From a phage, in the NCBI GenBank assembly GCA_012212665.1, contig GCA_012212665.1_4517.1: a DNA stretch of 64,000 nucleotides. The stretch is one strand, 5' to 3'. This document shows positions 3,245-63,754 of the stretch, one piece after another. The translations under genes and the position numbers were made by a program. Numbering within the stretch: position 1 is the stretch's first letter; each line of letters starts with the position of its first letter. The notes under the pieces are model-generated. The model did no database searches and had not been told where the DNA came from. It saw only the letters and a list, made by a program, of their open reading frames with translations.

Positions 3245-3509
3245 CTAATTTCCTTAATTGATATTGCAACGAGCTAATAATTTCTTCGTTCATTTTAATA
3301 TACATGTCACGCAAGAAAGGTTTTAACCCATCACGAATAATTGCTAACGTATCACCTTTACATAAATTAACCAAATAAGGATGGTCTAAAGCATCCCAAC
3401 CAGGCTGATTAGCATACATACCATAGTTTTCTTCCATCATATGATTAAGGCGTTTGATATCTTGGATACGTGATTCAATAGCATCTTTCTGGAGTTGTTT
3501 AATATTCAT
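3228..3509 (-). CDS. Hypothetical protein
   Basis: ORF of 93 aa, minus strand. Confidence 0.4.
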   Translation of the reverse strand: MNIKQLQKDAIESRIQDIKRLNHMMEENYGMYANQPGWDALDHPYLVNLCKGDTLAIIRDGLKPFLRDMYIKMNEEIISSLQYQLRKLDDENN

Positions 3510-3970
3510 TAATAAAGGTCCTCTGAATAAAGTTCTTTCTCACTTCCGCCACGTTCAATACGTACCTGTCCAGCATACGTTGCAATAATCATTGCTTCTT
3601 CCCGCGTCCAGTAATTAGAGTATTGGTCGATAAAGCCTTGGTCGTCACCACAAACTTGTTGCGAGACTAATTGAGGACCAACTATATCAAGTACTTCAGC
3701 CATATCTTTAGAGTAATGACGAACTCCAGGAATAACCAGAGTTCCACCGCTCTTCAATTTAAACCTATTAGCTGCACATACTATAACACGTTGAACTTTT
3801 TGGTCGTTATTCCAATAGCACGTTTGCCAACAGATTTCAGGAACTTCATTCATTATATCATCAGCAGAATAATTATAACCGTAGGACTGGAATTTTTCTG
3901 CTAGACTTTCAGGAGTCTCACGAGACAAGGCCAAATCTAATAGCTCTAAACGTTCTTTAAATGATTTCAT
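3509..3970 (-). CDS. Hypothetical protein
   Basis: ORF of 153 aa; stop/start overlap with flanking ORFs suggests translational coupling. Confidence 0.45.
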
Positions 3971-12388: not shown

Positions 12389-13489
12389 TTACGCTGTGAA
12401 GATTTTATCCCACATCGCAACAACTGCATCTCGGTTATACTTCTTCCATACGGCTTCAGCACGTTTAACTCGAGCTTCGTATGTGTCAGTGAATTCTAAT
12501 ACAGCTTTTGTGTAAAGCGCAACTACTTCTTTCTTAGGAGTAGAGGAATCAATTTCTACACGCACAGTATCTGGGTCATATTCGAATGTCGCGTGCGGAT
12601 AATCCTTAAAAACTAACTGAATCACAGGGACACCTTTAGAGATGGCTTCAATAGAACTATTCTCTACCGTACCCGTGTCAGGACACGTATTGATAAGTGC
12701 TTTAGCTGTTTTAAGACGTTCCATGATTTCACTGTGTGGAGCATCAATAATAACAGGATACTTAGCCGGTGGTGCCCATTTACTAGGACAGTATCCTGCA
12801 CCATTTTCGCCTAGTGCTTTAATCGCTTCAAGAGCAACATCAGTACGACGCATTTTAGTGTCATAACGTTGTGCACTAATAATCAGATCAGTCGCCGGAA
12901 GAACTTCAGGTTTCTCATTCAAACAAATAACCGGATAATCTTCGGCTTCAAACAACGGATTTGCTCGCCAATAATCATAATCAATTTTGTCAGTCAGACC
13001 TGAAGTCATATAACAATATTTGCGTTCAAATTCACGGAAGGCTTTAGTAGGAGCATAACTCTTACCACCGTTCTTATGAATTTGAATAGTCTGGTCCCAA
13101 ATTTGAACAATGCCACGAGATACCGGTTCAAATGGTGTTGCCATAAAATTCTTATGAACTTTAGAGAGACCTGCGTCTTTAATTGCCTGAACGGTTAGTT
13201 TGGTCGGTTCCATTGTAACAACGAAATCGTACTCATTAATGCCGGCTAGTTCAACAATCTTACGAGCCATAGTATAACTCATACCTAGACTGAATTTAGT
13301 CAGATGACCAACAGGATGATGATTAACCTTCCAATCACCAAATGTGTCATTATCAAAACCGATATAATCAATATCGGCACCGATAGAAACTAAATATTTC
13401 AACACATTTAAATGTACTGCTTCAAGACCACCTTGTACACGTTCAGGATTAAATGGGACTGCACGAGATGGGATAAACATAACTTTCAT
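12389..13489 (-). CDS. GT-B fold glycosyltransferase (GT4-like), candidate DNA sugar transferase
   Basis: 366 aa; C-terminal motif TGTVENSSIEAISKGVPVI resembles the E-x7-E / EAxxxGxPVI signature of GT4 glycosyltransferases; lies between rIIA and gene 39. Confidence 0.6.
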   Translation of the reverse strand: MKVMFIPSRAVPFNPERVQGGLEAVHLNVLKYLVSIGADIDYIGFDNDTFGDWKVNHHPVGHLTKFSLGMSYTMARKIVELAGINEYDFVVTMEPTKLTVQAIKDAGLSKVHKNFMATPFEPVSRGIVQIWDQTIQIHKNGGKSYAPTKAFREFERKYCYMTSGLTDKIDYDYWRANPLFEAEDYPVICLNEKPEVLPATDLIISAQRYDTKMRRTDVALEAIKALGENGAGYCPSKWAPPAKYPVIIDAPHSEIMERLKTAKALINTCPDTGTVENSSIEAISKGVPVIQLVFKDYPHATFEYDPDTVRVEIDSSTPKKEVVALYTKAVLEFTDTYEARVKRAEAVWKKYNRDAVVAMWDKIFTA

Positions 13490-13500: not shown

Positions 13501-13533
13501 ATTAAAATTAAAATGAAGCTCCTAAAGGAGCTT
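13501..13533 (-). terminator. Terminator-like hairpin downstream of gene 39
   Basis: Minus-strand hairpin AAGCUCC-UUUA-GGAGCUU overlapping the gene 39 stop, followed by a U-rich tract. Confidence 0.45.
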
Positions 13534-15349
13534 AGGACATCCATTCTTTACGAAGTTCTGAATCATCACCCAACAACATTTCAAAGAGTTCTTTCCAATT
13601 TTCAGGAAGTTTAACTACGTCGTACACAGGGTTCTGAATCATTTCACGATACTCTGACTTTTCAAGGGAGCCTAATCCCTTGATGTATCGAATACTATGC
13701 TTAGGCAGTGTATCTTTAACTTCTTCATACTCAGCTACAGTATAAAACCATTTTTGAGTTTTGCCAATTTGTGCAATAATTACAGGTGTTTTAACAAAGC
13801 GAATACGTCCTTGTTCAAACAATTCAGGCCAATTACTAAAGAAAGCAAGCAAAGCCGGATAGATACTTCCAAGACCGTCATGATCGGCATCGGTCATAAT
13901 TGCAATATTACGATAGTTCGTATTCTCTGCCTTTTCACCAAGAATAAGACCTGTGATAGCACAGATATCGAATAACTCTTTGTTCTTCATCATATCAGCA
14001 TATGACATACCCCAGCTATTCATCACCTTACCACGTAATGGGAATCCACCGTGTAGTTCACGGTCACGAACATCAATGAGATATCCAATTGCCGAATCAC
14101 CTTCTGTTAAGAACAATGTCGTATCTGCATCTTTACCACATTGGTTAGCTTTAATATGCTTATGAACCTTAGCTTTAGTTGCCTTTTTAGCTGCTTTAGT
14201 TTCTGCAGCCTTTTCTGCTGCCAATTTACGAGCTAATGCTGCTTCAACAATAGGCATAATCAAGGCTTCGTTTTTAAGAAGTGCCTGGGCAATTTTCTTA
14301 GCATCTAATTGGATATGATTACGAATATCACCATACGTTGACGTTAAACGTTCTTTAGTCTGAGAATCAAAACGCATGTTGCTCATGTCTCGAATAAACA
14401 TCAACATTGTGAGGCATTCTTTAACACGAGCTTTAGTGACTTCAATACCCTTATATTTCTTTTTAATACCTGGCAAAAGATGTTCGCAGATATCATCCAT
14501 TACACATTCAACATGATGACCACCATTTTTAGTATGGATGTTATTCACATAAGTTAAATGACGGAAGCCATCTGGTGATGTTGTGAATGCTATAGAGACT
14601 TTATCATTTTCTTGAATGATGTTATCTTCACCAAATTGTTTAGCAAATCGTTTAAAATTACCATCGACCTTTTTACCATTAAATGTGAACTTGATATCAG
14701 GATAAACGACTGCCAATGTTTGAAGTCGATCTAAAGTAATATCTAAATAAATTTGAGATAAATTATGCTCTTCAAATGAAGTGAAATCAGGAGTGAAGAT
14801 TACTTTAGTGCCTTTACCTTTAGATTTCTTAGAAGACCATGATTTGTTTTCCATTCCGTTTGAACAGTTAACAGTGATTTCATTTTCGCCATCTGACGTG
14901 ATGCCTGTAAACAACGTAGAGAAGATATTAGTTAAACTACTCCCGACGCCGTTCATACCACCAGTCTTGCGTTCAGAGTCATCACCAAAGTTACCACCGG
15001 CCTTTGGAATAGTCCAGGCTGCTACAGGCCCAGGAATTTGTTCACCTGTTTGGTCGGTAACTAAACCTTGAGGAATACCACGTCCGTTATCTTCCACCGA
15101 AACTTGATTATTTTTAATTTGCACATCAATTTTATTTGCAAACTTAAATGATGTACGAATAGCTTCATCAACCGAGTTGTCAATAATCTCATCGATTAAT
15201 TTAACCAGGCCAGGAACATATTCAACTTGTTGATATTTACCAAACAAAAACCGCTCGTGGGCTTCTTTAGCAGAAGAACCAATATACATACCACTACGTT
15301 TCTTAATATGTTCTACATCTGACAATACCTTAATTTCATTTTTAATCAT
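13532..15349 (-). CDS. 39: DNA topoisomerase II large subunit, single fused polypeptide equivalent to T4 gp39 plus gp60
   Basis: 605 aa continuous ORF with GyrB-like ATPase (GHKL) and TOPRIM regions; T4 encodes this as gene 39 (516 aa) plus split gene 60. Confidence 0.9.
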   Translation of the reverse strand: MIKNEIKVLSDVEHIKKRSGMYIGSSAKEAHERFLFGKYQQVEYVPGLVKLIDEIIDNSVDEAIRTSFKFANKIDVQIKNNQVSVEDNGRGIPQGLVTDQTGEQIPGPVAAWTIPKAGGNFGDDSERKTGGMNGVGSSLTNIFSTLFTGITSDGENEITVNCSNGMENKSWSSKKSKGKGTKVIFTPDFTSFEEHNLSQIYLDITLDRLQTLAVVYPDIKFTFNGKKVDGNFKRFAKQFGEDNIIQENDKVSIAFTTSPDGFRHLTYVNNIHTKNGGHHVECVMDDICEHLLPGIKKKYKGIEVTKARVKECLTMLMFIRDMSNMRFDSQTKERLTSTYGDIRNHIQLDAKKIAQALLKNEALIMPIVEAALARKLAAEKAAETKAAKKATKAKVHKHIKANQCGKDADTTLFLTEGDSAIGYLIDVRDRELHGGFPLRGKVMNSWGMSYADMMKNKELFDICAITGLILGEKAENTNYRNIAIMTDADHDGLGSIYPALLAFFSNWPELFEQGRIRFVKTPVIIAQIGKTQKWFYTVAEYEEVKDTLPKHSIRYIKGLGSLEKSEYREMIQNPVYDVVKLPENWKELFEMLLGDDSELRKEWMS

Positions 15350-16708: not shown

Positions 16709-17233
16709 TCATTTTAGCAAAATAAAATCAACTTGTTCTGCCAATGAACGTCTAAACATTAATTGACAACTTCCGAGGATGAAATCAGGTGCTTCATAGA
16801 CCGCGATGTAGTATCCTTTAGCTTTCAAGAGTTCAACATCTACCTGGTCATCAAACCATGCATAAACAGCGTCAACACTTTCAAATCCAAAATAGAACCC
16901 TTGAGCCCAATCTTCGTTCAATTCAAATGTGTGCTCAATTCTATAGTATCTTAAGATATTTTGTTCAAGGAGTTTGTCTTCATTTACTGTAGGACGATTA
17001 GGGACATTATAGTTGTCGCCGTGATGGTAGAAGTTACCTGAGAGTATTCCATGCTTATCAAGGAACTCCCATGTTTCTTCAGAGTTGTCGGTGCCTGACC
17101 AACCGTAAGGTGAGCGAGGTTCTTTATTCCAGGAGATTTCCCAAATTCTGACGGCTTTACCATCTTCGATAGCAACTCCTGGTAAAGATTCACGTTGGGT
17201 ACAAAAACTACGTTCTACGCGGTAAACTAACAT
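16709..17233 (-). CDS. Hypothetical protein
   Basis: ORF of 174 aa with AGAGGAG Shine-Dalgarno. Confidence 0.5.
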   Translation of the reverse strand: MLVYRVERSFCTQRESLPGVAIEDGKAVRIWEISWNKEPRSPYGWSGTDNSEETWEFLDKHGILSGNFYHHGDNYNVPNRPTVNEDKLLEQNILRYYRIEHTFELNEDWAQGFYFGFESVDAVYAWFDDQVDVELLKAKGYYIAVYEAPDFILGSCQLMFRRSLAEQVDFILLK

Positions 17234-25092: not shown

Positions 25093-25123
25093 AATTAACT
25101 CCTTTGTTGTTTAATTACAGGTG

Positions 25124-25131
25124 TATTTATA
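25124..25131 (-). promoter_or_regulatory. Late promoter (TATAAATA) upstream of soc
   Basis: Exact TATAAATA on the minus strand about 30 nt upstream of the soc start; soc is a late capsid gene. Confidence 0.6.
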
Positions 25132-25137
25132 ACTTAA

Positions 25138-33428: not shown

Positions 33429-33526
33429 TGTATTTTTCCATAGGCATCATTATATTTTACTCATGTTTAAAAGATAAGACGATTATATACTAAGGGTTAT
33501 ACAGCATTTAAAACTTTAAATGGCTC

Positions 33527-34075
33527 TTAACGAGCCCATTTGATGATTTCTGTAATCAAACCATTACGTTCGCTTGCATTAAATCCTATAACTTTGTTAG
33601 CACCATCATGATTAAGTAATTGATATGTTTGGATTTTGTTATGAATTGCAAACTCTTCAAAATGTGAAATGACTGTATTAAAACCGAATGAAGACAAAGT
33701 AATAAGGTCGTCTTCAAAACTTTCAGTCATTTCATTACGTGTTAAAATAATTGTGAACACATCATGGTTTTGGCAAAGACGAACATAGTCCTGTTCATAA
33801 ACGTCAAGAACCGAGTCCGCATCTTGTCGAATACGTCCATAAACCCAGTTACTAATATATCCACGGTCTAACAGATAAATCTTAGTAGGGTCTAAATAAT
33901 TCAACATCGTTTCGAAACAGCCAACTTCATTTCGAGACTTAACATCGAAACGTCCATCAACTGTTCGTTTAGGGAAATCAATCTTTACATATCTTTCACT
34001 AATTTCCATTATGTCATTAATGAAAGTTGTTTTACCAGCATTATCTGGGCCGTCTACTAAAATAATTTTAGCCAT
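33527..34075 (-). CDS. P-loop nucleotide/nucleoside kinase-like protein (thymidylate kinase / dNK fold)
   Basis: 182 aa; Walker A GPDNAGKTT and LLDRGYIS (DRY/DRH-like) motif; part of the uvsX-43 insertion. Confidence 0.5.
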   Translation of the reverse strand: MAKIILVDGPDNAGKTTFINDIMEISERYVKIDFPKRTVDGRFDVKSRNEVGCFETMLNYLDPTKIYLLDRGYISNWVYGRIRQDADSVLDVYEQDYVRLCQNHDVFTIILTRNEMTESFEDDLITLSSFGFNTVISHFEEFAIHNKIQTYQLLNHDGANKVIGFNASERNGLITEIIKWAR

Positions 34076-35692: not shown

Positions 35693-35734
35693 GTTTACCT
35701 CAATACAATTTATTATATACTCAATTCATAAAGC

Positions 35735-37191: not shown

Positions 37192-37593
37192 TTATAGATT
37201 CGGTTTATACGATTTAAATGTTTCGAATTCGCCTTTATTCATAAGAGCTTTGAATTCGTCAGGACGCATAGCTTTGTCGTCGATAATCCAATCATATACT
37301 GGTTTATGTGTTAGCAAATTATGGTACTTCAAGCCAATGTTTGCCAAGTTCTGAATCAGACTTGGGAGAATGTCAATTGCTATACGACCAGGACCTACTG
37401 ACTTCATACCGCGAGCAGTGTAAAGCGTTATGGTATGCCCTGCATCATACAGGGCATTAATGGCGGTCACCATTTCGACGTCTGGTTTGAAGTTCACATA
37501 ATCACGATTGTTATTCCACTCTGTTATACAATCATCGACATCAAAACAAAGATTAAGCATGTTTTCTACACGGTGCATTAGATTCGTTCCCAT
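37192..37593 (-). CDS. HAD-superfamily phosphatase (KdsC-like small sugar-phosphate phosphatase)
   Basis: 133 aa; motif I FDVDDCIT (DxDx[TV]) near the N-terminus. Confidence 0.55.
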   Translation of the reverse strand: MGTNLMHRVENMLNLCFDVDDCITEWNNNRDYVNFKPDVEMVTAINALYDAGHTITLYTARGMKSVGPGRIAIDILPSLIQNLANIGLKYHNLLTHKPVYDWIIDDKAMRPDEFKALMNKGEFETFKSYKPNL

Positions 37594-39266: not shown

Positions 39267-39307
39267 GTTGTGGTCCTCATTGGTAAGTAGGTGTATCGTA
39301 CACTATT

Positions 39308-39451
39308 CTAGTTAAAGCATTCATACTTTGCTTGTAGTCCAATCATAATCCATCCGATTATAAGAGTCGGAATCATTACTGGAGCCGTTAAGCTCCAGTA
39401 GATAGTCATGACAAGCATCAATAGTAAAAGTCCTATTGTTATTGCTTTCAT
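39308..39451 (-). CDS. Small hydrophobic peptide (47 aa)
   Basis: Unannotated ORF MKAITIGLLLLMLVMTIYWSL...; its ATG overlaps the TGA of the SIS gene (ATGA). Confidence 0.3.
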   Translation of the reverse strand: MKAITIGLLLLMLVMTIYWSLTAPVMIPTLIIGWIMIGLQAKYECFN

Positions 39452-40083
39452 TGTTCGCCTCGTAACATGGCACCTAGTGCACCACCAGGGTGGAACTTAA
39501 GGAAGTCATTAGAGGTAAATCCACGTTCAGACGAAAGGTTGATAGCAAACGTATCGATAAGCGCTAACAACAATGTAGTGGACATGGTCGGAGCCAGAGA
39601 ATTCTCATCAACCTCTACCGCGATGCCTGTACAGAACGTATAATCAAAAAGAGCTTCGTATTCTTGCGGAATGTCAGGGTTACAATGTAACAGAATCTGT
39701 TTAACCTGAGGACGAATCATACGAAGATGTTTAGCAACACCTATCATTTCTTCAGTCTTACCAGAACGACTGATGTGAACTAATACATCATTAGGCGCAA
39801 TGAATCCTGCATCACCGTGAGAATAATGCCCGGTGTTCAAATACATGCTAGGAATACCTAGTGAAGCAAAAGTCTCGGAAGCTTTAGTTGCGATATTAGC
39901 GTTCTTACCAACACCTGTAATAATTACTCGGCTTTCATAATTACTCAGTCCAGGGCGACGAAGAGTTTCAAGAATAGCATTATATCGGGCAGAGTTTTGA
40001 CTAATTACTTTAGCCATAGTGGCAAGAGATGAAGCTTGTTTTACGATTGCGTCAATAGCGATAGTGATTGGTGTAGTTTTCAT
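39448..40083 (-). CDS. SIS-domain sugar-phosphate isomerase, arabinose-5-phosphate isomerase (KdsD/GutQ)-like
   Basis: 211 aa; motifs ITGVGKNANIA, HGDAG, SRSGKTEE, APTMSTT, FHPGGALG align with the KdsD SIS domain; no CBS domains. Confidence 0.75.
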   Translation of the reverse strand: MKTTPITIAIDAIVKQASSLATMAKVISQNSARYNAILETLRRPGLSNYESRVIITGVGKNANIATKASETFASLGIPSMYLNTGHYSHGDAGFIAPNDVLVHISRSGKTEEMIGVAKHLRMIRPQVKQILLHCNPDIPQEYEALFDYTFCTGIAVEVDENSLAPTMSTTLLLALIDTFAINLSSERGFTSNDFLKFHPGGALGAMLRGEQ

Positions 40084-49474: not shown

Positions 49475-49497
49475 ATTATTTCCTCATTAGTTAATTC

Positions 49498-49522
49498 ATT
49501 CTATCATCCGTTTATAAAGCAA
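49498..49522 (-). promoter_or_regulatory. MotA-dependent middle promoter upstream of gene 47
   Basis: Minus strand TTGCTTTAT (MotA box) -11 nt- TAGAAT; GGATGATAGAAT identical to the gene 39 middle promoter. Confidence 0.6.
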
Positions 49523-49544
49523 AAAAGGAACTCCGAAGAGTTCC
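49513..49544 (-). terminator. Intrinsic terminator overlapping the MotA box
   Basis: Minus-strand hairpin GGAACUC-UUCG-GAGUUCC followed by UUUUUUGCUUU. Confidence 0.6.
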
Positions 49545-49717
49545 TATCCACATAGTACACCGTACAGAGGCTCATTTGGACTTTTAAATCGAATGGGCTT
49601 GTACGTAATAGTTCCTTCGGCTTTAGCTTTATCATAAGACTCTTTAAAACGTCTCATTCTTTCTGCTTTGCCTTTACGGATTTTATCGAAATTTTCAGAA
49701 GTCGGGATGTTCATCAT
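49544..49717 (-). CDS. Small hypothetical basic protein (57 aa)
   Basis: Unannotated ORF with GAGAGGTG Shine-Dalgarno-like sequence; its stop abuts the terminator hairpin. Confidence 0.3.
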   Translation of the reverse strand: MMNIPTSENFDKIRKGKAERMRRFKESYDKAKAEGTITYKPIRFKSPNEPLYGVLCG

Positions 49718-49756
49718 GCATAAGCACCTCTCGGAAAATGCCTAAATCGATTTCTC

Positions 49757-49978
49757 TCATCGTTTCCACCATTTCTTAACTTGAAATGAATCAACCCACA
49801 CGAGTTGTTTTGGGTCTGCCTTTACAATAGGCGGACAAATTTCTGTAATAGAACCGTCGTGATATTCCTTTTCAGAAATTTTAACACAAAGAGGACCACC
49901 CAATTTAACGGTGAACCCTGCGTTCAGCTTCAGACGTTTAAACTTTGTTTGAACTAGCGCCATTAATGATGTCCTCAA
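49757..49978 (-). CDS. Hypothetical protein
   Basis: ORF of 73 aa in the interval where T4 carries alpha-gt. Confidence 0.4.
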   Translation of the reverse strand: MRTSLMALVQTKFKRLKLNAGFTVKLGGPLCVKISEKEYHDGSITEICPPIVKADPKQLVWVDSFQVKKWWKR

Positions 49979-51914: not shown

Positions 51915-51951
51915 ATTATTTTCCTCGGTTATTTTATTATCCAATGAGAGA

Positions 51952-51980
51952 ATTATACTCATCTCTCAAGAGTTTGTATA
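51952..51980 (-). promoter_or_regulatory. Early promoter (copy of the ndd-type promoter block)
   Basis: GAGAATTATACTCATCTCTCAAGAGTTTGTA closely matches 7281..7315. Confidence 0.45.
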
Positions 51981-52220
51981 TTATTTTTTAAGCATGAAAA
52001 GTAAGTAATTTGTATCACGTGGAGTAATATCAACACCCATATCAAAGATGCCTTTATAGATTGGGTATTTGTTTTCGGTTGTATCGAAGCTGAAACTATT
52101 TCCATCACAACTAACAGTAATAGCATCTGTTAAAATGTCATACTCAATCCTAACAATTGAATTACCAATTTTAACGTCGAGGTGTTTTTTGAATTTGATA
52201 AAATCTAATTCTTGGGCCAT
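51981..52220 (-). CDS. Hypothetical protein (55.x)
   Basis: ORF of 79 aa. Confidence 0.45.
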   Translation of the reverse strand: MAQELDFIKFKKHLDVKIGNSIVRIEYDILTDAITVSCDGNSFSFDTTENKYPIYKGIFDMGVDITPRDTNYLLFMLKK

Positions 52221-53351: not shown

Positions 53352-53379
53352 TTTATTTTCCTCTATAGTAGATGGTTTA

Positions 53380-53408
53380 ATCTTAACACATCTATTGAGG
53401 ATGTAAAC
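53380..53408 (-). promoter_or_regulatory. Early promoter
   Basis: Minus strand GTTTACATCC-17 nt-TAAGAT. Confidence 0.45.
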
Positions 53409-53485
53409 TGTTTTATGAAAATATTTTTGATTTGAGAGGGGCACAAGGAGATAGTGAAGTGAAGATTCCAATGGATTATATTAGA

Positions 53486-54125: not shown

Positions 54126-54365
54126 TTAAGCCTTTTTATCAAGAACAGAATTCAGTTTATTAGTAATTTTGTCCAAACGTTCATTGAATTCGCTGGAGGA
54201 TAAACCCTTTTCCGGAGAAATTAAACTAATCACGAAAAATACAACAGTAAAAGGAATAAGAAAAATAGCTCCAACTGCCATAAACAAAAAGAACGTTACA
54301 GTTGTAAGAAAATCAGCTAAACCTTTACGAAATTTATACATATTTACCCTTAATTGGTTAACCAA
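54126..54365 (-). CDS. Small membrane protein
   Basis: 79 aa with a hydrophobic central segment. Confidence 0.45.
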   Translation of the reverse strand: MVNQLRVNMYKFRKGLADFLTTVTFFLFMAVGAIFLIPFTVVFFVISLISPEKGLSSSEFNERLDKITNKLNSVLDKKA

Positions 54366-54455
54366 GCATTGATAAGCACTAAACTACACTGTGAATAAAA
54401 TTCTGGACCAAAATGAAAAATCATATCATTTATAGTATCCATAATATAATTCAAT

Positions 54456-54926
54456 TTAATCATGTTTCCACACCCCATCGGTATTTGACCAAAGTCGCTG
54501 ATTATCTGATCCTCGCCACAACTTTTTGGTCGGAAGATTTTTCTCATACTTCCCATCAATAATAACATCAACATATTTAAGCATTTCTAGTTGTTTAATA
54601 TCTTCAAACTTATATCCTGTCCACAACCAAATGCTTTTATTGGGATAAAGATTTTTAATAGTTTGTACCACAGAGTGAATCACGTCTCTGTTATCAGGAT
54701 AAAGAGGGTCACCTCCAGTTATAGTTAATCCTTCTATATAATCATTATTCAAACATTCAATTAATTGTTCTAGTGTTTCACCAGTGAATGGAATACCATT
54801 TCTAGCATTCCATGTTGATTTATTATAACACCCTTCGCATTTATGCAAACAACCTGTAACGAAAAGAACGACCCTGCAACCAGGGCCATTCACAAAATCA
54901 CAAGGATAAAATCTATCATAATTCAT
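54456..54926 (-). CDS. nrdG: Anaerobic ribonucleotide reductase activating protein NrdG (radical SAM)
   Basis: 156 aa; N-terminal Cys cluster (CRVVLFVTGCLHKCEGC) typical of NrdG; T4 synteny. Confidence 0.9.
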   Translation of the reverse strand: MNYDRFYPCDFVNGPGCRVVLFVTGCLHKCEGCYNKSTWNARNGIPFTGETLEQLIECLNNDYIEGLTITGGDPLYPDNRDVIHSVVQTIKNLYPNKSIWLWTGYKFEDIKQLEMLKYVDVIIDGKYEKNLPTKKLWRGSDNQRLWSNTDGVWKHD

Positions 54927-56740
54927 TGGTGTTTAACCCTATGCATTATTTCTTTATTTTTACCGAGATTAAATCCGCGTTCGTTCGGATTTCCCAGATA
55001 GCCGCATGTTCTTCTTATTGTGTTCATCTTTTTAGGATCAGTTTCTCCACAAACTGAACAAACAAATCCATTTTCAGTAGGAGTCATTTCATGGGTACTT
55101 CCGCATGTAAAACATTTATCTACTGGCATATTAACACCAAAATAATCTAAATGCTGTGCAGCATAATCCCATACAGCCTCAAGTCCCTTTAAGTTATTTT
55201 TCATATCAGGAAGTTCAACATAAGAAATGTGACCACCCGTCGCAATGAAATGATATGGCGCTTCACGAGAAATTTTTTCAAACGGAGTGATATTTTCTTC
55301 TACTGAAACGTGGAAACTGTTAGTGTACCATCCTTTATCAGTAACATCCTTTACACTTCCATATTTTTCAGTATCGAGTTTACAGAAACGATAACACAAG
55401 TTTTCAGCAGGAGTAGAATACAAGCTAAAAGCAAATCCGGTTCTTTCTGTCCACTGTTTAAGACGGGCATTCATTTTAGTTAAAATTTCTTGTCCGATAT
55501 CACGACCAACAAGAATATTCAATTCGTGAATACCAATGTATCCTAAGGACACTGAACTTCTGCCGTTTTTAAATAACTCAATTATATCGTCATCGGGTTT
55601 AAGACGAACCCCGAATGCACCTTCTTGGTAAAGAATAGGAGCAACAGTCGCTTTAACTCCTTTTAAGGAACTAATTCTACACATCAATGCTTCAAAACAC
55701 AAATCCATTCGTTCATTGAACAATTCAACAAATTTCTGTTCGTTAAATTGTGTTCCAACATAAGAATCTAACGCAATTCGAGGAAGATTCAGCGTTACAA
55801 CACCAAGATTATTACGTCCATCAAGAATTTCATTACCAGTCGAATCTTTCCATACGCTCAAGAAACTACGGCAACCCATCGGAGAAACAGGAATAGATGA
55901 ACCAGTGATAGCTTTATTATTCTTAACTGAAATAATATCAGGATACATCCTTTTACTTGCACACTCTAGAGCAAGCTGCTTAATATCATAGTTCGGGTCG
56001 TCTTTATAAAGATTAACACCTTCTTCAACGAACATGACAAGCTTAGGAAAAATAGGAGTTATCCCATCACGGCCAAGACCTTTAATACGATTTTTCAGAA
56101 TTGCTTTCTGAATCATTCGCTCGGCCCAGTCAGTTCCCGTACCAAATGTAATCGTTACAAAAGGCGTTTGCCCGTTTGAACTAAAGAGAGTATTTACTTC
56201 ATATTCATAAGCTTGGAATGCATCATATACATCTTTTTCTGTTTTAGATTGAGCATAATTCAGTGCATCAGCGATTTGCCATTTTTCCGCGTCCTCGATA
56301 TGTTTTGCATAGGTGCGTTTAACATAAGGAGAAAGTACTTTATCTACATTCGCAAAAGTCGTTCCGCCGTATTGATGAGAAGCAACTTGCGCAGTAATTT
56401 GTGCCATAATTGCAGTAGCAACACCGATTGATTTAGGTGTTTCAATCTGCGCATTACCAAGCTTAAACCCGTTCTCAAGCATTCCTTTTAAATCTACTAA
56501 ACAGCAATTAGTAAACGGAAGAGCAGGAGAATAATCAATATCGTGGAAATGGATAATTCCGCTTTCATGCGCTTTCATAATAAAAGACGGGACCATATTT
56601 TTGGCAATGTGTTTAGACACAATACCAGCCATAAGGTCCCGTTGAGTTGGAAAAACACGAGAATCTTTATTAGCATTCTCGTTCAAAAGATCTTTATTAG
56701 TTTTACGAATTAATCCTTCAATTTCTTTTTCAATTTTCAT
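54923..56740 (-). CDS. nrdD: Anaerobic ribonucleoside-triphosphate reductase NrdD (intronless)
   Basis: 605 aa continuous ORF; C-terminal zinc ribbon (CFTCGSTH...CSVCG) and glycyl-radical motif RRTCGYLG. Confidence 0.92.
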   Translation of the reverse strand: MKIEKEIEGLIRKTNKDLLNENANKDSRVFPTQRDLMAGIVSKHIAKNMVPSFIMKAHESGIIHFHDIDYSPALPFTNCCLVDLKGMLENGFKLGNAQIETPKSIGVATAIMAQITAQVASHQYGGTTFANVDKVLSPYVKRTYAKHIEDAEKWQIADALNYAQSKTEKDVYDAFQAYEYEVNTLFSSNGQTPFVTITFGTGTDWAERMIQKAILKNRIKGLGRDGITPIFPKLVMFVEEGVNLYKDDPNYDIKQLALECASKRMYPDIISVKNNKAITGSSIPVSPMGCRSFLSVWKDSTGNEILDGRNNLGVVTLNLPRIALDSYVGTQFNEQKFVELFNERMDLCFEALMCRISSLKGVKATVAPILYQEGAFGVRLKPDDDIIELFKNGRSSVSLGYIGIHELNILVGRDIGQEILTKMNARLKQWTERTGFAFSLYSTPAENLCYRFCKLDTEKYGSVKDVTDKGWYTNSFHVSVEENITPFEKISREAPYHFIATGGHISYVELPDMKNNLKGLEAVWDYAAQHLDYFGVNMPVDKCFTCGSTHEMTPTENGFVCSVCGETDPKKMNTIRRTCGYLGNPNERGFNLGKNKEIMHRVKHQ

Positions 56741-57210
56741 TTTAAACTCTTTCTAAGCTGCTTTTTGAATGAAGCTATTAATTGTGTTTTAGTATCAGAT
56801 TCATTATATTCAAATCCTCTTTGAAGCATCTCGGCCATCATTTCATCTTTACCTAGTCTTGAGAACTCTTTAGTTTTGTCTGGAACAAAATTAGGATGGA
56901 TATTATTATCAGAATAATCTTGTTTCAAATAATCAAGAAGAGATTCAAGCCATTCTAGGTAGTCAACGTTTTGACCTTTCAAACCGGAACGGTTGAACTT
57001 ATGCTTCATTTGACCTTCTGCTGCGTTGCACAGATTACAGAGTAATCCACGAACTCTACCGGCTTTTGGCCCATTTAATTCGTGGTCATGGTCAAGATGG
57101 TTACCTTGAACATCAGGGTCTAATTCACGGTGGCAAATAGGACACTTACCGTTCTGTGCATCATAAAATTTTTGTTTTTCTTCTTTATATTTTGCGCCTG
57201 ATAATAACAT
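56737..57210 (-). CDS. 49: Recombination endonuclease VII gp49 (Holliday junction resolvase)
   Basis: 157 aa; near-identical to T4 endo VII (KYKEEKQKFYDAQNGKC.IC.REL.PDVQ.NHLDHDHELNGPKAG.VRGLLCNLCNAAEGQMKHKFNRSGLKGQ). Confidence 0.92.
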   Translation of the reverse strand: MLLSGAKYKEEKQKFYDAQNGKCPICHRELDPDVQGNHLDHDHELNGPKAGRVRGLLCNLCNAAEGQMKHKFNRSGLKGQNVDYLEWLESLLDYLKQDYSDNNIHPNFVPDKTKEFSRLGKDEMMAEMLQRGFEYNESDTKTQLIASFKKQLRKSLK

Positions 57211-59490: not shown

Positions 59491-59795
59491 TATAATGTTC
59501 TCTCAAAATTGTGGAAGCATTTACGGCATTTCAATTTCAAGTTATCAGTGGTCCAGTTAACCAGTTGGACTTGGATAGTTCCACATTCCGGACATGGGTG
59601 TTTTGCTGCCGATTTGGCAGCATTTTCACGTCGTTCAACCATTTTCATGATTTCGTTCCATGCTGGAGGAACGAACTCTTCTTCACCGTGGATTTTATCT
59701 CGCTGAACAAATTCAATCTTTGAACTATCGTCAATAAACTTAACCAAGCTGTGATTAGTGTTCATATCAATATCCTCTAAAAGACGTAGTTTCAT
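59490..59795 (-). CDS. Hypothetical protein with C-terminal zinc ribbon
   Basis: 101 aa; CPECG...CRKC. Confidence 0.5.
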   Translation of the reverse strand: MKLRLLEDIDMNTNHSLVKFIDDSSKIEFVQRDKIHGEEEFVPPAWNEIMKMVERRENAAKSAAKHPCPECGTIQVQLVNWTTDNLKLKCRKCFHNFERTL

Positions 59796-60745
59796 TATAA
59801 AACCTCAATGGCATTTCGTAAACCATCCGCTTTCGCATTCAGAGCTTTTAACGATTTAGTTTGTTCTGCAATCTGGGCTTCGACTTCTTTCAGACGAGAT
59901 TTGAGATATTCGCGTTCTTCTCTTAAGTTATCAACTTTTTCTGCTTTAGGCTCTTTAATAGTCTTAAGTTTATACTCGTTAGGGGACTTCAGCTTAATTC
60001 GGGTACGAGAACTGTATAACATTGAACCGTTATCTTCGGATTCGTCGAACGTTTCAACAACATCCATAGTCTCTAACAATGTAATAAGTTTATAAGACAA
60101 CGAACGAACGGTTTTGTTATGCTTATTAATTTCTTCAGCTTTCATGGTACCGAGATTACGTGAGTAGTAATAAGGAACCTGGATATCAATTGATAATGAT
60201 GCGTTACCATTACCGGTTGGTTTGAATACTGCAGTAACCCAATCTTTAACATGAACTTTATTTGTACGACCATCGCCACCTGTGAATAATTTACGAGAAT
60301 GTTTAAAAAGCATATTCACTTGGTTATTGAATTCACAAGCAAATTTATCAGCAAATTTAGTTTCAGGAATGGTAGATAACCAATCAGCCAAATGAGTCTT
60401 TTTAACATCATTAACAATAGTGAATTCAACCAAATCGGTTTTAGATGTCACAGATTTAATAAAGCTCGGCTTCATAAAGTTTTTGATGTTATCACGAGCT
60501 ACAGTAGAAGATAATAAACGAGAACGTTTGAACCATTGAAGCAGTGTCCCTAATGAATGAGAATATGCATTTTGAGTATCTTTACAGATATGATTTTCTT
60601 GGCCTGTGTATGTACCAAAATCGCGAAGAATACCACTTACTACATCTCGGTGTGGAACATCAAATCCTAGTGCACCAGAAGCGCGCTGAGCATGAACGTT
60701 AGCGATAAGACCGGCAAAGTATTCAATGTAATGTGAACGTGTCAT
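59795..60745 (-). CDS. Hypothetical protein with C-terminal coiled coil
   Basis: 316 aa; C-terminus LREEREYLKSRLKEVEAQIAEQTKSLKALNAKADGLRNAIEVL; own conserved early promoter. Confidence 0.5.
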   Translation of the reverse strand: MTRSHYIEYFAGLIANVHAQRASGALGFDVPHRDVVSGILRDFGTYTGQENHICKDTQNAYSHSLGTLLQWFKRSRLLSSTVARDNIKNFMKPSFIKSVTSKTDLVEFTIVNDVKKTHLADWLSTIPETKFADKFACEFNNQVNMLFKHSRKLFTGGDGRTNKVHVKDWVTAVFKPTGNGNASLSIDIQVPYYYSRNLGTMKAEEINKHNKTVRSLSYKLITLLETMDVVETFDESEDNGSMLYSSRTRIKLKSPNEYKLKTIKEPKAEKVDNLREEREYLKSRLKEVEAQIAEQTKSLKALNAKADGLRNAIEVL

Positions 60746-60773
60746 AATATTTTCCTCTCGTTAAGATAGGTTC

Positions 60774-60803
60774 ATTATACTCCAACCATCCTTGGTTGTA
60801 AAC
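60774..60803 (-). promoter_or_regulatory. Early promoter (conserved family block)
   Basis: TTATACTCCAACCATCCTTGGTTGTAAAC on the forward strand, i.e. GTTTAC-18 nt-TATAAT on the minus strand; near-identical to 18795..18824. Confidence 0.55.
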
Positions 60804-60807
60804 TGAT

Positions 60808-61767
60808 TTATGATTTTAACGCATTCATTGCGTTAAAAAGTTTAGAGTACTGCAACTGGAGCTTAGTAACTACTTGTTGAGCATCACGAAGCTTAGCTTG
60901 TGCTTTGTCAAGTTCAACAGACAGTTGGTCCATAGTGGCCTTGATTTGATTGTAATGGTAATCTTCGACCGGAAGAAGGTCATTAGAAACATTTAGTTTT
61001 ACTGCAGACAGTTTGCACACATTTGGCAAACCTTTAAACATTGATTTACCCGAAGTAGAATAAGCACTTAGGACTTCGGCCTGTTCAATTGGGGTCCCAG
61101 TAAGCGATGCTTCAAACAATGCATTTTCCTTTTTAAGATTTTGATAATATTCGGAGTCTTTGTGCCACCATGGCGCAGGAACCTTTTTACCAATAGATAC
61201 ACGAGCCTGGATAGCGATATGGCCCTTATTCTTGATAGGGTCGATAATATTAAGCTCACGAGAATAAATTGCTTTAATCTGGTGGATATTATCACCTAAC
61301 ACTTCCAACGCTTGGTGGAATACACGAGCAACGTTATCATTCTTAGGTTTATACGTAAGAGTGAACTCATTCTCACTGATAACCATGATTTCCAACTTAT
61401 CGTAAGTATATTTCAAATGTTTCATGTTAATTGCTTGAGGACGAATACGAGAAGCAATGGCCATCAGATTGTTAAGGTTATTCCGGAACTGCTTAGCGAA
61501 ATATTGTCCTTCACCGCCAATACAAAAATTACGAAGTTTCTGTTTGGCTAATAAACGGCTGAACTCACCATTTTTAATGAACTCTTTAACGGGTGTGTTA
61601 GTAACGCATTCAAATTGGGTAAACATACGAGAAGTAATCCCATAATATGAACAGATTTCCTCAATCTCTTCAGGAGTCTTTACAGGCATACGGATAGGAT
61701 TAGGTCCTGGAGTATATGCGTTCGAGGTAAATTCTTTGATAAGTTCTCTACGTGTAATAAAAGCCAT
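60808..61767 (-). CDS. Hypothetical protein with C-terminal coiled coil
   Basis: 319 aa; C-terminus QLSVELDKAQAKLRDAQQVVTKLQLQYSKLFNAMNALKS. Confidence 0.5.
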   Translation of the reverse strand: MAFITRRELIKEFTSNAYTPGPNPIRMPVKTPEEIEEICSYYGITSRMFTQFECVTNTPVKEFIKNGEFSRLLAKQKLRNFCIGGEGQYFAKQFRNNLNNLMAIASRIRPQAINMKHLKYTYDKLEIMVISENEFTLTYKPKNDNVARVFHQALEVLGDNIHQIKAIYSRELNIIDPIKNKGHIAIQARVSIGKKVPAPWWHKDSEYYQNLKKENALFEASLTGTPIEQAEVLSAYSTSGKSMFKGLPNVCKLSAVKLNVSNDLLPVEDYHYNQIKATMDQLSVELDKAQAKLRDAQQVVTKLQLQYSKLFNAMNALKS

Positions 61768-61793
61768 TTTATATTCCTCATGTTGAAAAATTT

Positions 61794-61822
61794 ATTATAC
61801 TCCAACCATCCTTGGTTGTACA
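61794..61822 (-). promoter_or_regulatory. Early promoter (conserved family block, -35 variant TGTACA)
   Basis: TTATACTCCAACCATCCTTGGTTGTACA block upstream of the 60808..61767 gene. Confidence 0.5.
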
Positions 61823-62818
61823 TCATTCCTTAAGAAGTTTTACTACCTGAATAAGATTAGCTCGTTCTGTTTTATTTTTACCATTTAAGCCTGCTAATCG
61901 TGAGATTTCATCGTCAGTCTGTTGAATAGTTACATTAAGTTCATTAATCAAAGCTTCAAAGTATTTGATTTGCTCAGCATGTTTTGATTCAAATTTCTGA
62001 ACCGGAATAACGTCTTGGTTTAGTTCGTCAATAAGGTCTTTAAGAGCATCTTCTTGGTTGATATCATATTCAACTTCTTTTATTTCTTCAACGAGCTCGT
62101 CTTTATATCTAACGTCTTTTAGTCCTGGTGCTGGTCCTGAAATCTCTTCTTTAAGAGTACAAACATACCCAATACGGTATCCAATGCCGTCTCGCTTAAT
62201 ATCAACTTCGTCGATAAATCCACAATGTTTAAGACCAGAGCCGATTATGTCAAAATATCCTTGACGTCGTCCTTCAAACGTTACACGAACTACTAAGACA
62301 GTTTTGCCACCAACCTTTTGAAGCTCACATTTATAAAAGTCTGTTGAACCTGAATAACGTGGATGAGTTTTAAAGTTCATCTGACGATCTAGGCCCATTT
62401 GTAAACGTGCTGTTACGGCCATAAAACGTGTTTGGTTCTCGTTAAGATGAGCAACAATCCATTTCAAAGGCATTTTACACTGTTCACGACCGAACAAATC
62501 AGTACGTCCTAGATTACGCAGGATATTGTTAGAGTTAATCATCGACAGAACGTTAAGTTTATTCAGCGCGCTGAAGATTCCATCAGCCATTGATTTTCCA
62601 TAACCTTTACACGCTTTAATAAGTGCTCGCGGCAGATTAGTATAGATTTCAGACGGCATATGAAAATCAAATTTACTAGTCAGTAATTGATGAACTTGGA
62701 TAGCAATTTGCTCATAATTAAGTGCTCTGCGATCGTTATGGTCTTTAAACCACACTTTAATCTGTGAAGCACATAAACCGTTAATTTCATGTTTTACCGC
62801 ATCAGATGTAATGCTCAT
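61823..62818 (-). CDS. Hypothetical protein with acidic region and C-terminal coiled coil
   Basis: 331 aa. Confidence 0.5.
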   Translation of the reverse strand: MSITSDAVKHEINGLCASQIKVWFKDHNDRRALNYEQIAIQVHQLLTSKFDFHMPSEIYTNLPRALIKACKGYGKSMADGIFSALNKLNVLSMINSNNILRNLGRTDLFGREQCKMPLKWIVAHLNENQTRFMAVTARLQMGLDRQMNFKTHPRYSGSTDFYKCELQKVGGKTVLVVRVTFEGRRQGYFDIIGSGLKHCGFIDEVDIKRDGIGYRIGYVCTLKEEISGPAPGLKDVRYKDELVEEIKEVEYDINQEDALKDLIDELNQDVIPVQKFESKHAEQIKYFEALINELNVTIQQTDDEISRLAGLNGKNKTERANLIQVVKLLKE

Positions 62819-62880: not shown

Positions 62881-63408
62881 TTATGCGTGAACCGTCTTTA
62901 AACGTTCTTCAAATTTCCGAAGAGTACTAATACGTTCTGCTTTCTGTTTTGTATAGTTTGCAATACGTTCTGAAGTGAGAGCGTATCGTTCGTTTACTGT
63001 TTCTTTCATGAAGTCAGGGATTTCACGAGAAGCTTTAATTTCATCAAACTTGTCGAGTACTGCCTGGTCTTCAGCGATTAAATTTTCATACATCTCGATA
63101 TCTTTCTTGATAAACTCGATATCTTCCTGGGTTACTTTGGATAAACGAGACGCTTTATCCTTTTTGTACTGCTCGTTAGTTTCACGAGACCAGAATAATG
63201 TACGTTTTTTGTTAGTGTTTTTGTAGACTTCCACAATTCCAACTGAATCGATGATAACAATCCAATTCCAGCGAGATTTGAAAATCTGACCTCCGTCAAC
63301 GGTAATCTCGTTATCATAAGCAACGTCATTAAAGAACTTGCTTTGTGCTTCAGATTTAAATTTACCGTCGTTATAATTTACCAGGTTGAAAATATCTTTA
63401 GCGTTCAT
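62881..63408 (-). CDS. Hypothetical protein
   Basis: 175 aa with GGAGGT Shine-Dalgarno and upstream early promoter. Confidence 0.5.
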   Translation of the reverse strand: MNAKDIFNLVNYNDGKFKSEAQSKFFNDVAYDNEITVDGGQIFKSRWNWIVIIDSVGIVEVYKNTNKKRTLFWSRETNEQYKKDKASRLSKVTQEDIEFIKKDIEMYENLIAEDQAVLDKFDEIKASREIPDFMKETVNERYALTSERIANYTKQKAERISTLRKFEERLKTVHA

Positions 63409-63435
63409 GTTTTACCTCCAGTAGTTGATAGGTCT

Positions 63436-63464
63436 ATAATAACATAACCATAGACCTTGTAAAC
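63436..63464 (-). promoter_or_regulatory. Early promoter
   Basis: Minus strand GTTTAC-17 nt-TATTAT with the GGTCTATAATA block shared with 4971 and 29971. Confidence 0.5.
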
Positions 63465-63466
63465 AA

Positions 63467-63754
63467 CTAAAAGAAACTTTTTTCAGTATTTTTTCCACTG
63501 AACCAAACAGACTTCGGGATTTTTTGTAATTTTTCAGATTTAAGTTTCTCTTCCTGTTCTTTCTTATATACACTCTTGTCGTACTGGAGCATCTCTATGG
63601 CATTCTTTTGCAAATGATCTAAGGTAATTAAGGCTTTAGTTTTTCCTTTCAAGGAAGAGTCCTGGCGAACTTCCTCGCTATATTGCATCGTAGAACTAAC
63701 CATACGATGTGCATACAGTTCGACTGCGGCTTTGATTTTTTGCATAAAATCCAT
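63467..63754 (-). CDS. Hypothetical protein
   Basis: ORF of 95 aa. Confidence 0.45.
   Translation of the reverse strand: MDFMQKIKAAVELYAHRMVSSTMQYSEEVRQDSSLKGKTKALITLDHLQKNAIEMLQYDKSVYKKEQEEKLKSEKLQKIPKSVWFSGKNTEKSFF

Follow-up and report, generated by a model that had tools for sequence, protein, structure and literature searches.

What does an uninterrupted nrdD gene say about the history of selfish elements in a T4-family phage, when the nrdD of T4 itself is interrupted by an intron? The question is raised by a 64-kb stretch of phage DNA (hereafter the window), in which an earlier note had described nrdD as intronless and had recognised no GIY-YIG or HNH open reading frames (ORFs), taking the two together as signs of a streamlined genome that would be useful for dating intron and homing-endonuclease invasions. 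That T-even phages differ in which of the T4 introns they carry was reported in 1987-89. T4 has been called "an oddity" and "the outlier," and its set of fifteen endonuclease genes is recognised as anomalous (PMC2988022). For RB69, group I introns were found to be absent and no mobile-element ORF was listed (Nolan et al., 2006; PMC1524935).

The window runs from the C-terminus of gene 37 through gene 38 and t, then rIIA, 39, 43, 46/47, and 55, to the nrdC region. At 64 kb it represents part of a genome of about 168 kb, and what follows describes that portion and makes no statement on the whole genome. Our main reading, which we hold at a probability of about 0.93 from comparison of sequences, is that nrdD is here a presumably normal and functional intronless gene, part of a compact 49-nrdD-nrdG operon in a T4-family phage of the RB69-like (Mosigvirus-type) kind, and that no intron, intein or homing endonuclease gene is present across the 64 kb.

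The nrdD Gene and Its Product

The description of nrdD as one uninterrupted ORF of 605 aa is well founded (Table 1). The Pfam NRDD profile is matched in one stretch from 1 to 562 of its 562 positions (E 2e-171), and Gly_radical is matched as well (E 2e-25); residues 1-605 align to the PDB crystal-structure chain of T4 NrdD (1h78_A), and 595 of the 605 amino acids are identical, without gaps, to those of spliced T4 NrdD. The glycyl-radical motif in which the ORF had been said to end is indeed present, but it lies near the C-terminus and not at it. Eight residues (C79, C290, N311, G580, and the four zinc cysteines) have the same identity and position in the window and T4 proteins; in T4 NrdD, we take Cys79, Cys290, and Asn311 to belong to the active site and the four C-terminal cysteines to bind zinc. 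NrdD presumably functions likewise in the window phage, where NrdG would generate the radical on Gly580 and Cys290, Cys79, and Asn311 would form the active site. The junction sequences on either side of the gene are compact: the stop of gene 49 overlaps the nrdD start by 4 nt as ATGA, and the start of nrdG overlaps the nrdD stop in the same form.

Table 1. Positions in the window of the genes, motifs, and insertion sites discussed in the text.
Feature	Position	Strand	Details and basis
ORF003c-like gene of the RB69-type module	12389..13489		366 aa
Topoisomerase II large subunit, unsplit (T4 gp39 + gp60 fused)	13532..15349	(-)	605 aa
soc/56 junction, empty segF site	25093..25137	(-)	45 nt; ORF list; T4 has a 675-nt segF there
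Junction after uvsX, empty segA site	33429..33526	(-)	ORFs; T4 has segA there
Region after gene 47, without alpha-gt or mobB	49475..49937	(-)	ORFs; RB69 gene order 47, a-gt.2, a-gt.3 ...
Cross-genus similarity island (part of 55.8, nrdG, nrdD)	54200..56800	(-)	Identity profiles, per-gene table, record counts by identity band
nrdG, radical-SAM activase	54456..54926	(-)	Pfam Fer4_12 (E 2e-47) and Radical_SAM
nrdD, class III (anaerobic) ribonucleotide reductase catalytic subunit	54923..56740	(-)	Uninterrupted 605-aa ATG ORF
Glycyl-radical motif RTCGYLG	54992..55012	(-)	Residues 577-583, Gly580; T4 NrdD residue comparison and Pfam Gly_radical
C-terminal four-cysteine zinc site	55049..55114	(-)	Cys543, 546, 561, 564; all four conserved in T4 NrdD
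Vacant nrdD site of the group I introns of T4 and JK45	56202..56203	(-)	After CDS nt 538, ...TATGAAT^ATGAAGT...
Gene 49, endonuclease VII, His-Me finger resolvase	56737..57210	(-)	Pfam Endonuclease_7 and Endonuc-dimeris

Group I Introns

When nrdD is aligned with its counterparts in T4 and in Shigella phage JK45, the window reads straight through the point at which both of these carry an intron (...GCTTATGAAT^ATGAAGTAAATACTCTCTTTAG...), and the peptide encoded there, VYDAFQAYEYEVNTLFSSNGQTPFV, is the same in all three. The earlier note had proposed a Rfam scan for group I introns together with an HMM search for GIY-YIG and HNH domains. The Rfam scan at gathering thresholds returned no intron match in the window, but it also missed the genuine JK45 intron, which scores 70.6 bits when just 1.5 kb is searched; a joint Rfam "evalue" scan detected the T4 intron and again missed that of JK45. 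Given this false negative, the Rfam result for the window is weak evidence when taken alone, and an nhmmer profile and an unfiltered custom covariance model were substituted. In the controls, the profile, built from four T-even intron cores, reached E values of 1e-16 to 1e-54, and nothing in the window was better than E 3.1. The T-even covariance model, searched without filters, scored 105-184 bits in the control loci and no higher than 11 bits in the window; a group I intron resembling neither the T-even type nor the Rfam consensus might, in principle, evade these searches. The miss also serves as a warning of method: with default Rfam settings, a real phage group I intron scoring 70 bits is overlooked if the search space is large and the filters are left on.

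A few weak Rfam "evalue" matches in the window were taken as chance: two miRNA families were matched, as was Y_RNA (27 bits), and a plastid group II fragment scored 24 bits where the threshold is 140. No conserved gene in the window is split, with nrdD, 39, 43, 41, 46, 47, uvsX, and 52, among others, present as single full-length ORFs. On the coding strand, the stretches of at least 120 nt that lack an ATG-started ORF of at least 45 aa number six and add up to 1,270 nt, which leaves little room for a hidden element.

Homing Endonucleases and Inteins

On both strands of the window, Pfam found no GIY-YIG, HNH, NUMOD, LAGLIDADG or intein (e.g., Hint) domain; among the individual families, PF01541, PF19835, and NUMOD were without a match, as were PF01844, HNH_3, HNH_4, and HNH_5. 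These searches covered stop-to-stop segments of at least 50 aa on the minus strand and at least 70 aa on the plus strand, and anything shorter was searched with a panel of T4-family endonucleases only. In the modA/modB/srd region, where the Pfam query was 66 aa short, coverage was provided by PHROGs and the same panel. As a control, Pfam recognised eight of ten known T4-family endonucleases, missing SegF and a truncated I-TevIII. PHROGs, applied to the 20 ORFs without a Pfam match, identified a homing endonuclease in none. The panel of 11 (including segA, segF, I-TevI, I-TevII, mobA, mobB, mobC, mobE, I-TevIII, and the endonucleases of JK45 and AV111) detects endonucleases in control loci; searched against the window by tblastn, phmmer, and family HMMs, it reached a best E of about 0.1. 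A hunt for remnants in six-frame segments of at least 25 aa, using tblastn, phmmer --max, and ad hoc GIY-YIG and HNH HMMs, returned only noise (E of at least 0.1).

Two proteins of the His-Me-finger (HNH) superfamily are nevertheless encoded in the window: gp49, which is endonuclease VII, and the N-terminal part of Srd, which matches the PHROG "HNH endonuclease" and "endonuclease VII" families. Srd was considered as an endonuclease gene on account of a degenerate HNH-like motif (LSLERFNNDIGYIKGNVIPV) and rejected, its best match being the full-length Srd family (E 2e-99) at the position of T4 srd. Both are conserved, syntenic T4 genes and not homing endonucleases. The statement that no GIY-YIG or HNH ORFs occur in 64 kb is thus borne out by Pfam, PHROGs, and the panel as far as homing endonucleases are concerned, with gp49 and Srd as the only HNH-superfamily proteins.

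Could a homing endonuclease of divergent or novel type, or a self-splicing intron that is atypical or lacks an ORF, be present and have evaded every search? The control failures of Pfam and of the Rfam filters described above leave some room for this, and PHROG families without known function are the sole matches for several ORFs (3509..3970, 16709..17233, 59795..60745, 61823..62818, and 62881..63408, among others). Those families, however, are matched over their full length and are widespread in T4-like phages, unlike the patchily distributed endonuclease genes. Moreover, the large genes all have full-length Pfam or T4 matches, the examined sites retain the gene order of T4 and RB69, and both the small extent of DNA outside ORFs and the low covariance-model scores speak against a concealed element. 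We regard such an element as very improbable.

Vacant Insertion Sites Across the Window

T4 has six endonuclease sites in the corresponding region (mobA, segF, segA, mobB, mobC, and I-TevII), and each of them is empty in the window. At the first, BLASTP aligns residues 1-474 of the topoisomerase II large subunit with gp39, 473-492 with the pre-gap part of gp60, and 493-605 with its post-gap part; the window protein is contiguous across the gap, DADHDG being followed directly by LGSIYP, and both mobA and the 50-nt translational bypass element are absent from the gene. The neighbour of the empty segA site is a kinase-like gene (33527..34075; PHROG thymidylate-kinase-like) of the RB69-type modification module, and the region after gene 47 is 94-99% identical to RB69, with no mobB-like sequence found anywhere in the window by the endonuclease panel. 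The ATGA overlap of nrdG and nrdD corresponds to the empty mobC site, and that of 49 and nrdD to the empty site of a free-standing endonuclease gene carried by phage AV111 and the IMG/VR locus L027. The sites may never have been invaded, or they may have been restored by recombination with empty alleles.

Is the Empty State Informative?

The intronless condition is widespread. A 300-nt probe spanning the T4 intron site matches 690 phage records, of which 619 (about 90%) are uninterrupted, and among IMG/VR loci nrdD is uninterrupted in 20 of 21, with the compact 49-nrdD-nrdG arrangement in 17 of 21. Freedom from introns and endonuclease genes is therefore the usual state of T4 relatives, and T4 is the exception; for this particular lineage, an intronless nrdD without homing endonucleases was already known from RB69 in 2006. 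In addition, nine of the fifteen T4 endonuclease genes fall outside the region equivalent to the window. The earlier note was thus right in its facts, an intronless nrdD and 64 kb free of homing endonucleases, and the T4 contrast that it drew also stands, as T4 has I-TevII inside nrdD and mobC adjoining it. The inference of a streamlined genome is weak, as the window shows the default state, published for RB69, over 64 of about 168 kb. That of a use in dating invasions fares no better: JK45 and AV111, which are about 95-96% identical to the window over the surrounding 10 kb, differ at the nrdD locus itself, so that the presence or absence of an intron or endonuclease gene there is a strain-level polymorphism and not a property of the lineage that one empty allele can date. 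With more than 600 empty alleles already at hand, one more contributes nothing to dating, and the observation as stated matters little.

The locus does have a history of exchange. Part of 55.8, nrdG, and nrdD form a 2.6-kb island that is about 94% identical to T4, in a window that is for the most part about 70% identical (66-79%), with flanking genes at about 80%. Against Tequatrovirus alleles, the island is 92-99% identical over most of its length. Its right edge coincides with the 49/nrdD junction, the site of a homing endonuclease gene in relatives, and two further sites lie inside the island, the nrdG/nrdD junction and the nrdD intron site. The possibility that the window allele represents an I-TevII-resistant homing site was examined separately and is unsupported: among 12 distinct alleles the site ranks 17th and 41st of the 59 intervals compared, with no peak of diversity. 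In a three-way comparison, the 100-nt bin with the insertion site has 13, 12, and 11 mismatches in the three pairs, against about 5 typically; it is the most mismatched bin in two pairs and shares that place in the remaining one.

It may be asked whether the empty sites are secondary, recombination with empty alleles having removed an intron or flanking endonuclease genes that the lineage once had; this would amount to true streamlining. The island is what one would look to here, with one edge at an endonuclease site and the mobC site inside it, as it indicates repeated allele replacement at nrdG-nrdD; a cycle of gain, degeneration, and loss is moreover established for homing endonuclease genes (PMC2988022). 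Set against this are the lack of any detectable endonuclease or intron remnant in the window and the clean ATGA junctions, of the same form as in RB69, and with some 90% of alleles empty, inheritance or import of an empty allele is the simplest history. We consider secondary loss rather unlikely. Genetic isolation offers another account, in which an arabinosyl-hmC module has replaced the glucosyltransferases, and T4-type introns and seg/mob genes rarely enter. The window does carry the RB69-type module, with kinase-like, U32, HAD-like, nucleotidyltransferase-kinase (562 aa), and SIS genes between uvsX and 43, and its ORF list holds no alpha-gt, beta-gt or dam; RB69 itself has been reported as unable to exchange genes with T4-type phages, and ara-hmC has been proposed as the block (PMC6024577). 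Nonetheless, nrdG-nrdD is 93-96% identical to Tequatrovirus alleles, and cross-genus exchange has therefore occurred at this same locus. Close relatives also carry a T-even-type intron with its endonuclease gene (JK45) or a free-standing endonuclease (AV111, a Mosigvirus), and most glucosylating Tequatroviruses are likewise intronless at the nrdD site. Isolation is accordingly a quite improbable cause.

An ordinary intronless nrdD in an endonuclease-free stretch, as favoured here, need not imply a locus untouched by endonucleases. We tentatively suggest, as a possibility that we would not yet rate as probable, that the island could be the footprint of repeated endonuclease-initiated gene conversion across genera, in an allele pool shared by Tequatrovirus and Mosigvirus, with the endonuclease gene not necessarily left behind ("hit-and-run" homing). 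If so, cross-genus conversion would take place even in ara-hmC phages that are said to be recombinationally isolated, and an endonuclease-free state would coexist with past endonuclease activity at the locus. The nrdG-nrdD island may as such be a test case for the reach of endonuclease-driven co-conversion of host genes between phage genera.

Comparison with Known Phages

The closest parallel to the window is RB69 (NC_004928, RB69p084-086). Its nrdD, 1818 nt long, has no intron and overlaps both nrdG and 49 in ATGA form; the locus is free of endonuclease genes, and the modification module and the gene order elsewhere are shared with the window. The DNA flanking nrdD is 97-100% identical in the two, whereas nrdD itself is 93.0% identical to RB69 and 94.3% identical to T4; being no closer to RB69 than to T4, the window gene is a different nrdD allele. 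In T4, by contrast, nrdD (sunY) is interrupted after CDS nt 538 by a 1033-nt group IA intron encoding I-TevII, and a 633-nt mobC lies between nrdG and nrdD. The T4 nrdD exons are 94-95.5% identical to the window at the nucleotide level, and the portion of T4 nrdG adjoining mobC is 62-81% identical.

JK45, although about 96% identical to the window over the surrounding 10 kb, carries at the exact T4 insertion site a 1045-nt nrdD intron with a 256-aa I-TevII-like endonuclease. This intron is 66% identical to that of T4 and its endonuclease 56% identical to I-TevII, and copies at least 99.8% identical to the JK45 intron are present in several other phages. AV111, which is classified as a Mosigvirus, has the same 49-nrdD-nrdG operon as the window; unlike the window, AV111 and L027 have a 273-aa free-standing endonuclease gene between 49 and nrdD. 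The product is weakly similar to I-TevI and SegF, and the 5' end of nrdD has diverged at the insertion (MSLEKDVLNFIS vs. MKIEKEIEGLIR).

The nrdD Gene and Its Junctions

The nrdD gene of the window is one uninterrupted 605-aa reading frame, whose product has 10 residues (of 605) that differ from those of spliced T4 NrdD. The product matches the entire Pfam NRDD profile in a single stretch, matches Gly_radical as well, and aligns with the T4 NrdD structure chain 1h78_A over residues 1–605. Both proteins share Cys79, Cys290, Asn311, Gly580 and all four zinc cysteines, and the RTCGYLG motif lies 22 residues before the C-terminus. In T4, a 1033-nt group IA intron encoding I-TevII interrupts nrdD after CDS nt 538, and mobC sits between nrdG and nrdD; the window is continuous at the intron site, and both mobC and I-TevII are missing from the locus. 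The junctions of nrdD with nrdG and with gene 49 are each a 4-nt ATGA overlap. With a single frame and no break at the T4 intron site, nrdD is intronless, as the earlier note had claimed.

Group I Introns

The Rfam scan that the earlier note had proposed gave, at default settings, no group I intron match in the window, but it is a weak check. The default scan was equally blank for an 11-kb stretch of phage JK45, used as a control: this ~96% identical relative has a real 1045-nt nrdD intron at the same site as that of T4. The JK45 intron scored 70.6 bits (family gathering score 50) when only 1.5 kb was searched, and a joint permissive "evalue" scan of the window and two controls (~70 kb) recovered the T4 intron (105 bits) and missed that of JK45. 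Because this real intron was missed in both the default and the joint scan, Rfam negatives at such search sizes are unreliable and are no proof that phage introns are absent. An nhmmer profile built from four T-even intron cores (T4 td, nrdB and nrdD; JK45 nrdD) reached E 3.1 in its top window match vs. 1e-16 to 1e-54 in controls, and a covariance model (R1; 176 positions, 41 pairs), run with every filter off, gave a window maximum of 11 bits vs. 105–184 bits in controls. Coding-strand stretches of at least 120 nt lacking an ATG-started ORF of at least 45 aa number six, add up to 1,270 nt and reach at most 282 nt, and the window holds no split conserved genes.

Homing Endonucleases

All minus-strand stop-to-stop segments of at least 50 aa (24,073 aa) and plus-strand ones of at least 70 aa (8,779 aa) returned zero Pfam matches to GIY-YIG, SegE_GIY-YIG, HNH, NUMOD, LAGLIDADG or intein domains such as Hint. 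As a control, Pfam recognized 8 of 10 T4 and JK45 endonucleases, missing SegF and the truncated I-TevIII. Of 20 ORFs without a Pfam match, PHROGs assigned every one to conserved T4-like families, none of them homing endonucleases. A panel of 11 endonucleases (segA, segF, mobA, mobB, mobC, mobE, I-TevI, I-TevII, I-TevIII and those of JK45 and phage AV111), searched by tblastn, phmmer --max and small family HMMs against six-frame segments of at least 25 aa, gave only noise in the window and found endonuclease genes in three IMG/VR control loci (L023, L027, L028). The GIY-YIG/HNH search suggested earlier was thus run across the window and detected no homing endonuclease domain, and the claim that the 64 kb lack such genes is borne out by Pfam, PHROGs and the panel alike. 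The accompanying statement that there are no HNH ORFs holds for homing endonucleases but is too broad if taken strictly, since endonuclease VII (gp49) and the N-terminal part of Srd, both products of conserved, syntenic T4 genes, belong to the HNH superfamily.

Srd is a member of the anti-sigma factor family (phrog_1400, E 2e-99) whose N-terminal region has significant secondary PHROG matches to "HNH endonuclease" (1e-14) and "endonuclease VII" (7e-11) and a degenerate motif, CAYSGESF...LSLERFNNDIGYIKGNVIPV. The sequence of this region suggests a His-Me-finger domain whose motif has changed and which has been recruited to a different role.

All six T4 endonuclease positions in the equivalent region are empty. 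T4 has a gp39/gp60 split with a mobA remnant, gene 60.1 and a 50-nt translational bypass element; the window has none of these, and its gene 39 reads unbroken from DADHDG into LGSIYP. The soc–56 spacing is 45 nt, and therefore segF is absent; after uvsX comes a kinase-like gene of RB69 type, and therefore segA is absent; mobB is missing together with alpha-gt.

Stretches that match promoter-associated repeat families are nonetheless abundant. These intergenic elements of 40–64 nt fall into several families, and on the minus strand a T4 early-promoter-like sequence (GTTTAC ... TATAAT/TATAGT) and a stem-loop overlap in each of them. They are similar to the PeSL cassettes of T4-type genomes, proposed mediators of modular shuffling (PMC2839356, PMC4122927).

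Coordinates of features (in the window unless a comparison locus is named)
Feature	Coordinates	Strand	Remarks
nrdD	54923–56740	-	
T4 intron site in nrdD	56203/56202	-	continuous
nrdG-nrdD similarity island	~54200–56800		part of 55.8, nrdG, nrdD; 100-nt resolution
Gene 39	13532–15349	-	topoisomerase II large subunit; single 605-aa protein
srd	21141–21887	-	
Gene 38	688–1467	+	glycine-rich adhesin of T2/T6 type (Pfam GP38, Gp38_N)
56/61 interval	25675–25941		no dam methyltransferase gene
motB Pfam matches	17293–17712, 17722–18207, part of 18269–18763		three tandem paralogues
92-nt segment of motB paralogues	17324–17415, 17753–17844, 18288–18379		
366-aa gene at RB69 ORF003c position	12389–13489		phrog_8302, function unknown
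Remainder of arabinosyl-hmC module	33527–40083		
Repeat examples, first set	4968–5008, 7266–7322, 7535–7594, 8047–8106, 16667–16726, 17240–17303, 18223–18272, 18781–18830		
Repeat examples, second set	21926–21966, 28652–28711, 29958–30021, 51932–51988, 53360–53423, 60760–60820, 61780–61829, 63416–63479		
JK45 intron missed by the larger Rfam scans (L001)	7047–7282		
Free-standing endonuclease gene, AV111 (L010)	2942–3763		
Free-standing endonuclease gene, IMG/VR locus L027	689–1507		

Affiliation and Gene Content

Megablast places the window in the Tevenvirinae, with the E. coli phages PECP20 (98.3–98.5% over 1–50 kb) and ATK47/ATK48 (96.7–98.1%) as best matches. Around nrdD it is 97–100% identical to RB69, the type Mosigvirus; T4 shares only 66–79% identity across most of the window. 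Gene order is as in T4 and RB69, namely the gene 37 C-terminus, 38 and t on the plus strand, and asiA, motA, 52, ndd, denB, rIIB, rIIA, 39, dexA, dda, srd, modA/B, soc, 56, 61, 41, 40, uvsX, 42, 43, regA, 62, 44, 45, 46, 47, 55, nrdH, nrdG, nrdD, 49, pin, nrdC and nrdC.x on the minus strand. The gp37 C-terminus, preceding gp38, carries a Peptidase_S74 intramolecular chaperone domain (Pfam). Where T4 has dam, before primase gene 61, only a ~280-nt non-coding stretch is found, and the motB family is represented by three genes with a common conserved segment.

The arabinosyl-hmC module is of RB69 type. RB69 ORF003c is a candidate arabinosyltransferase (PMC6024577). Other module genes are kinase-like, an unknown 299-aa gene, gene 42, U32-like, HAD-like and SIS-domain genes, and a 562-aa nucleotidyltransferase-kinase, the counterpart of RB69 ORF53_52c; beta-gt, like alpha-gt, is not present in the window.

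A Cross-Genus Similarity Island

At the nucleotide level, nrdD is the sole T4-like gene of the window (94.3% to T4, 93.0% to RB69; RB69 vs. T4, 94.3%). The corresponding identities are 81.6, 98.1 and 81.6% for gene 49 and 78.3, 94.5 and 77.9% for nrdG. In three Tequatrovirus-type loci (L011, L012, L014), gene 49 is T4-type (98% to T4) and nrdG is 95–97% identical to that of the window. Cross-genus similarity marks an island at ~54.2–56.8 kb, ~93–96% identical to Tequatrovirus alleles (T4, L011–L014), within which RB69 identity drops from 97–100% to 84–99% per 100-nt bin (93% over nrdD). On the right it ends abruptly at the nrdD start/49 stop, T4 identity falling from 0.95 to 0.83 to 0.69 in successive bins; T4 alone dips to 0.62–0.81 in the nrdG part adjoining mobC. 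In line with this, the nrdD probe has 638 records at 90% identity or more, vs. ~160–170 for the two 25-kb blocks of the window.

The right edge coincides with the 49/nrdD endonuclease insertion site of relatives, and the intron site and the nrdG/nrdD (mobC) site both lie inside the island. The layout fits the established idea that sequence flanking a homing endonuclease is transferred laterally with its help (PMC2988022); a selective sweep or ordinary recombination would look no different. Two points alone are worth carrying forward, the island and the false negative of Rfam.

The nrdD Locus Among Relatives

This is exactly where near relatives differ. In JK45, nrdD contains an intron with an endonuclease gene, and the window has neither; several other phages have that intron in copies at least 99.8% identical, yet it shares only 66% identity with the T4 intron. 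AV111 and L027 carry a free-standing 273-aa endonuclease gene between 49 and nrdD, where the window has a 4-nt overlap. Endonuclease content is thus polymorphic at strain level. The nrdD 5′ end is strongly diverged in alleles of the AV111/L027 type (MSLEKDVLNFIS... vs. MKIEKEIEGLIR...), and the peak of nrdD diversity, at nt 1–270, is due to these alleles. Such divergence would be expected if the 49/nrdD endonuclease targets the nrdD 5′ end in genomes without that gene, such as the window. Divergence at the homing site had been suspected to be elevated, but a 12-allele sample showed no such excess.

The proposal of a streamlined genome, useful for dating invasions, finds only partial support: near relatives vary, the window is ~38% of the genome, 9 of 15 T4 endonuclease genes lie outside the equivalent region, and one empty allele among hundreds has no special leverage in dating invasions. 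A 300-nt probe centred on the nrdD intron site matched 690 phage records, continuously in 619, with 63 extra "places" of the kind that split genes yield (a T4 record was seen as two halves). Of 21 IMG/VR nrdD loci, 20 lack an interruption, and the compact 49-nrdD-nrdG arrangement is found in 17.

The intronless, endonuclease-free state is thus ordinary and already known in this lineage. Patchy intron occurrence in T-evens was the first clue to intron mobility in 1987–89 (PMC2988022), and Nolan et al. detected no group I introns in RB69 and four other T4-like genomes and listed no RB69 ORF among putative mobile elements (PMC1524935). RB69 itself has exactly the same compact intronless arrangement as the window.
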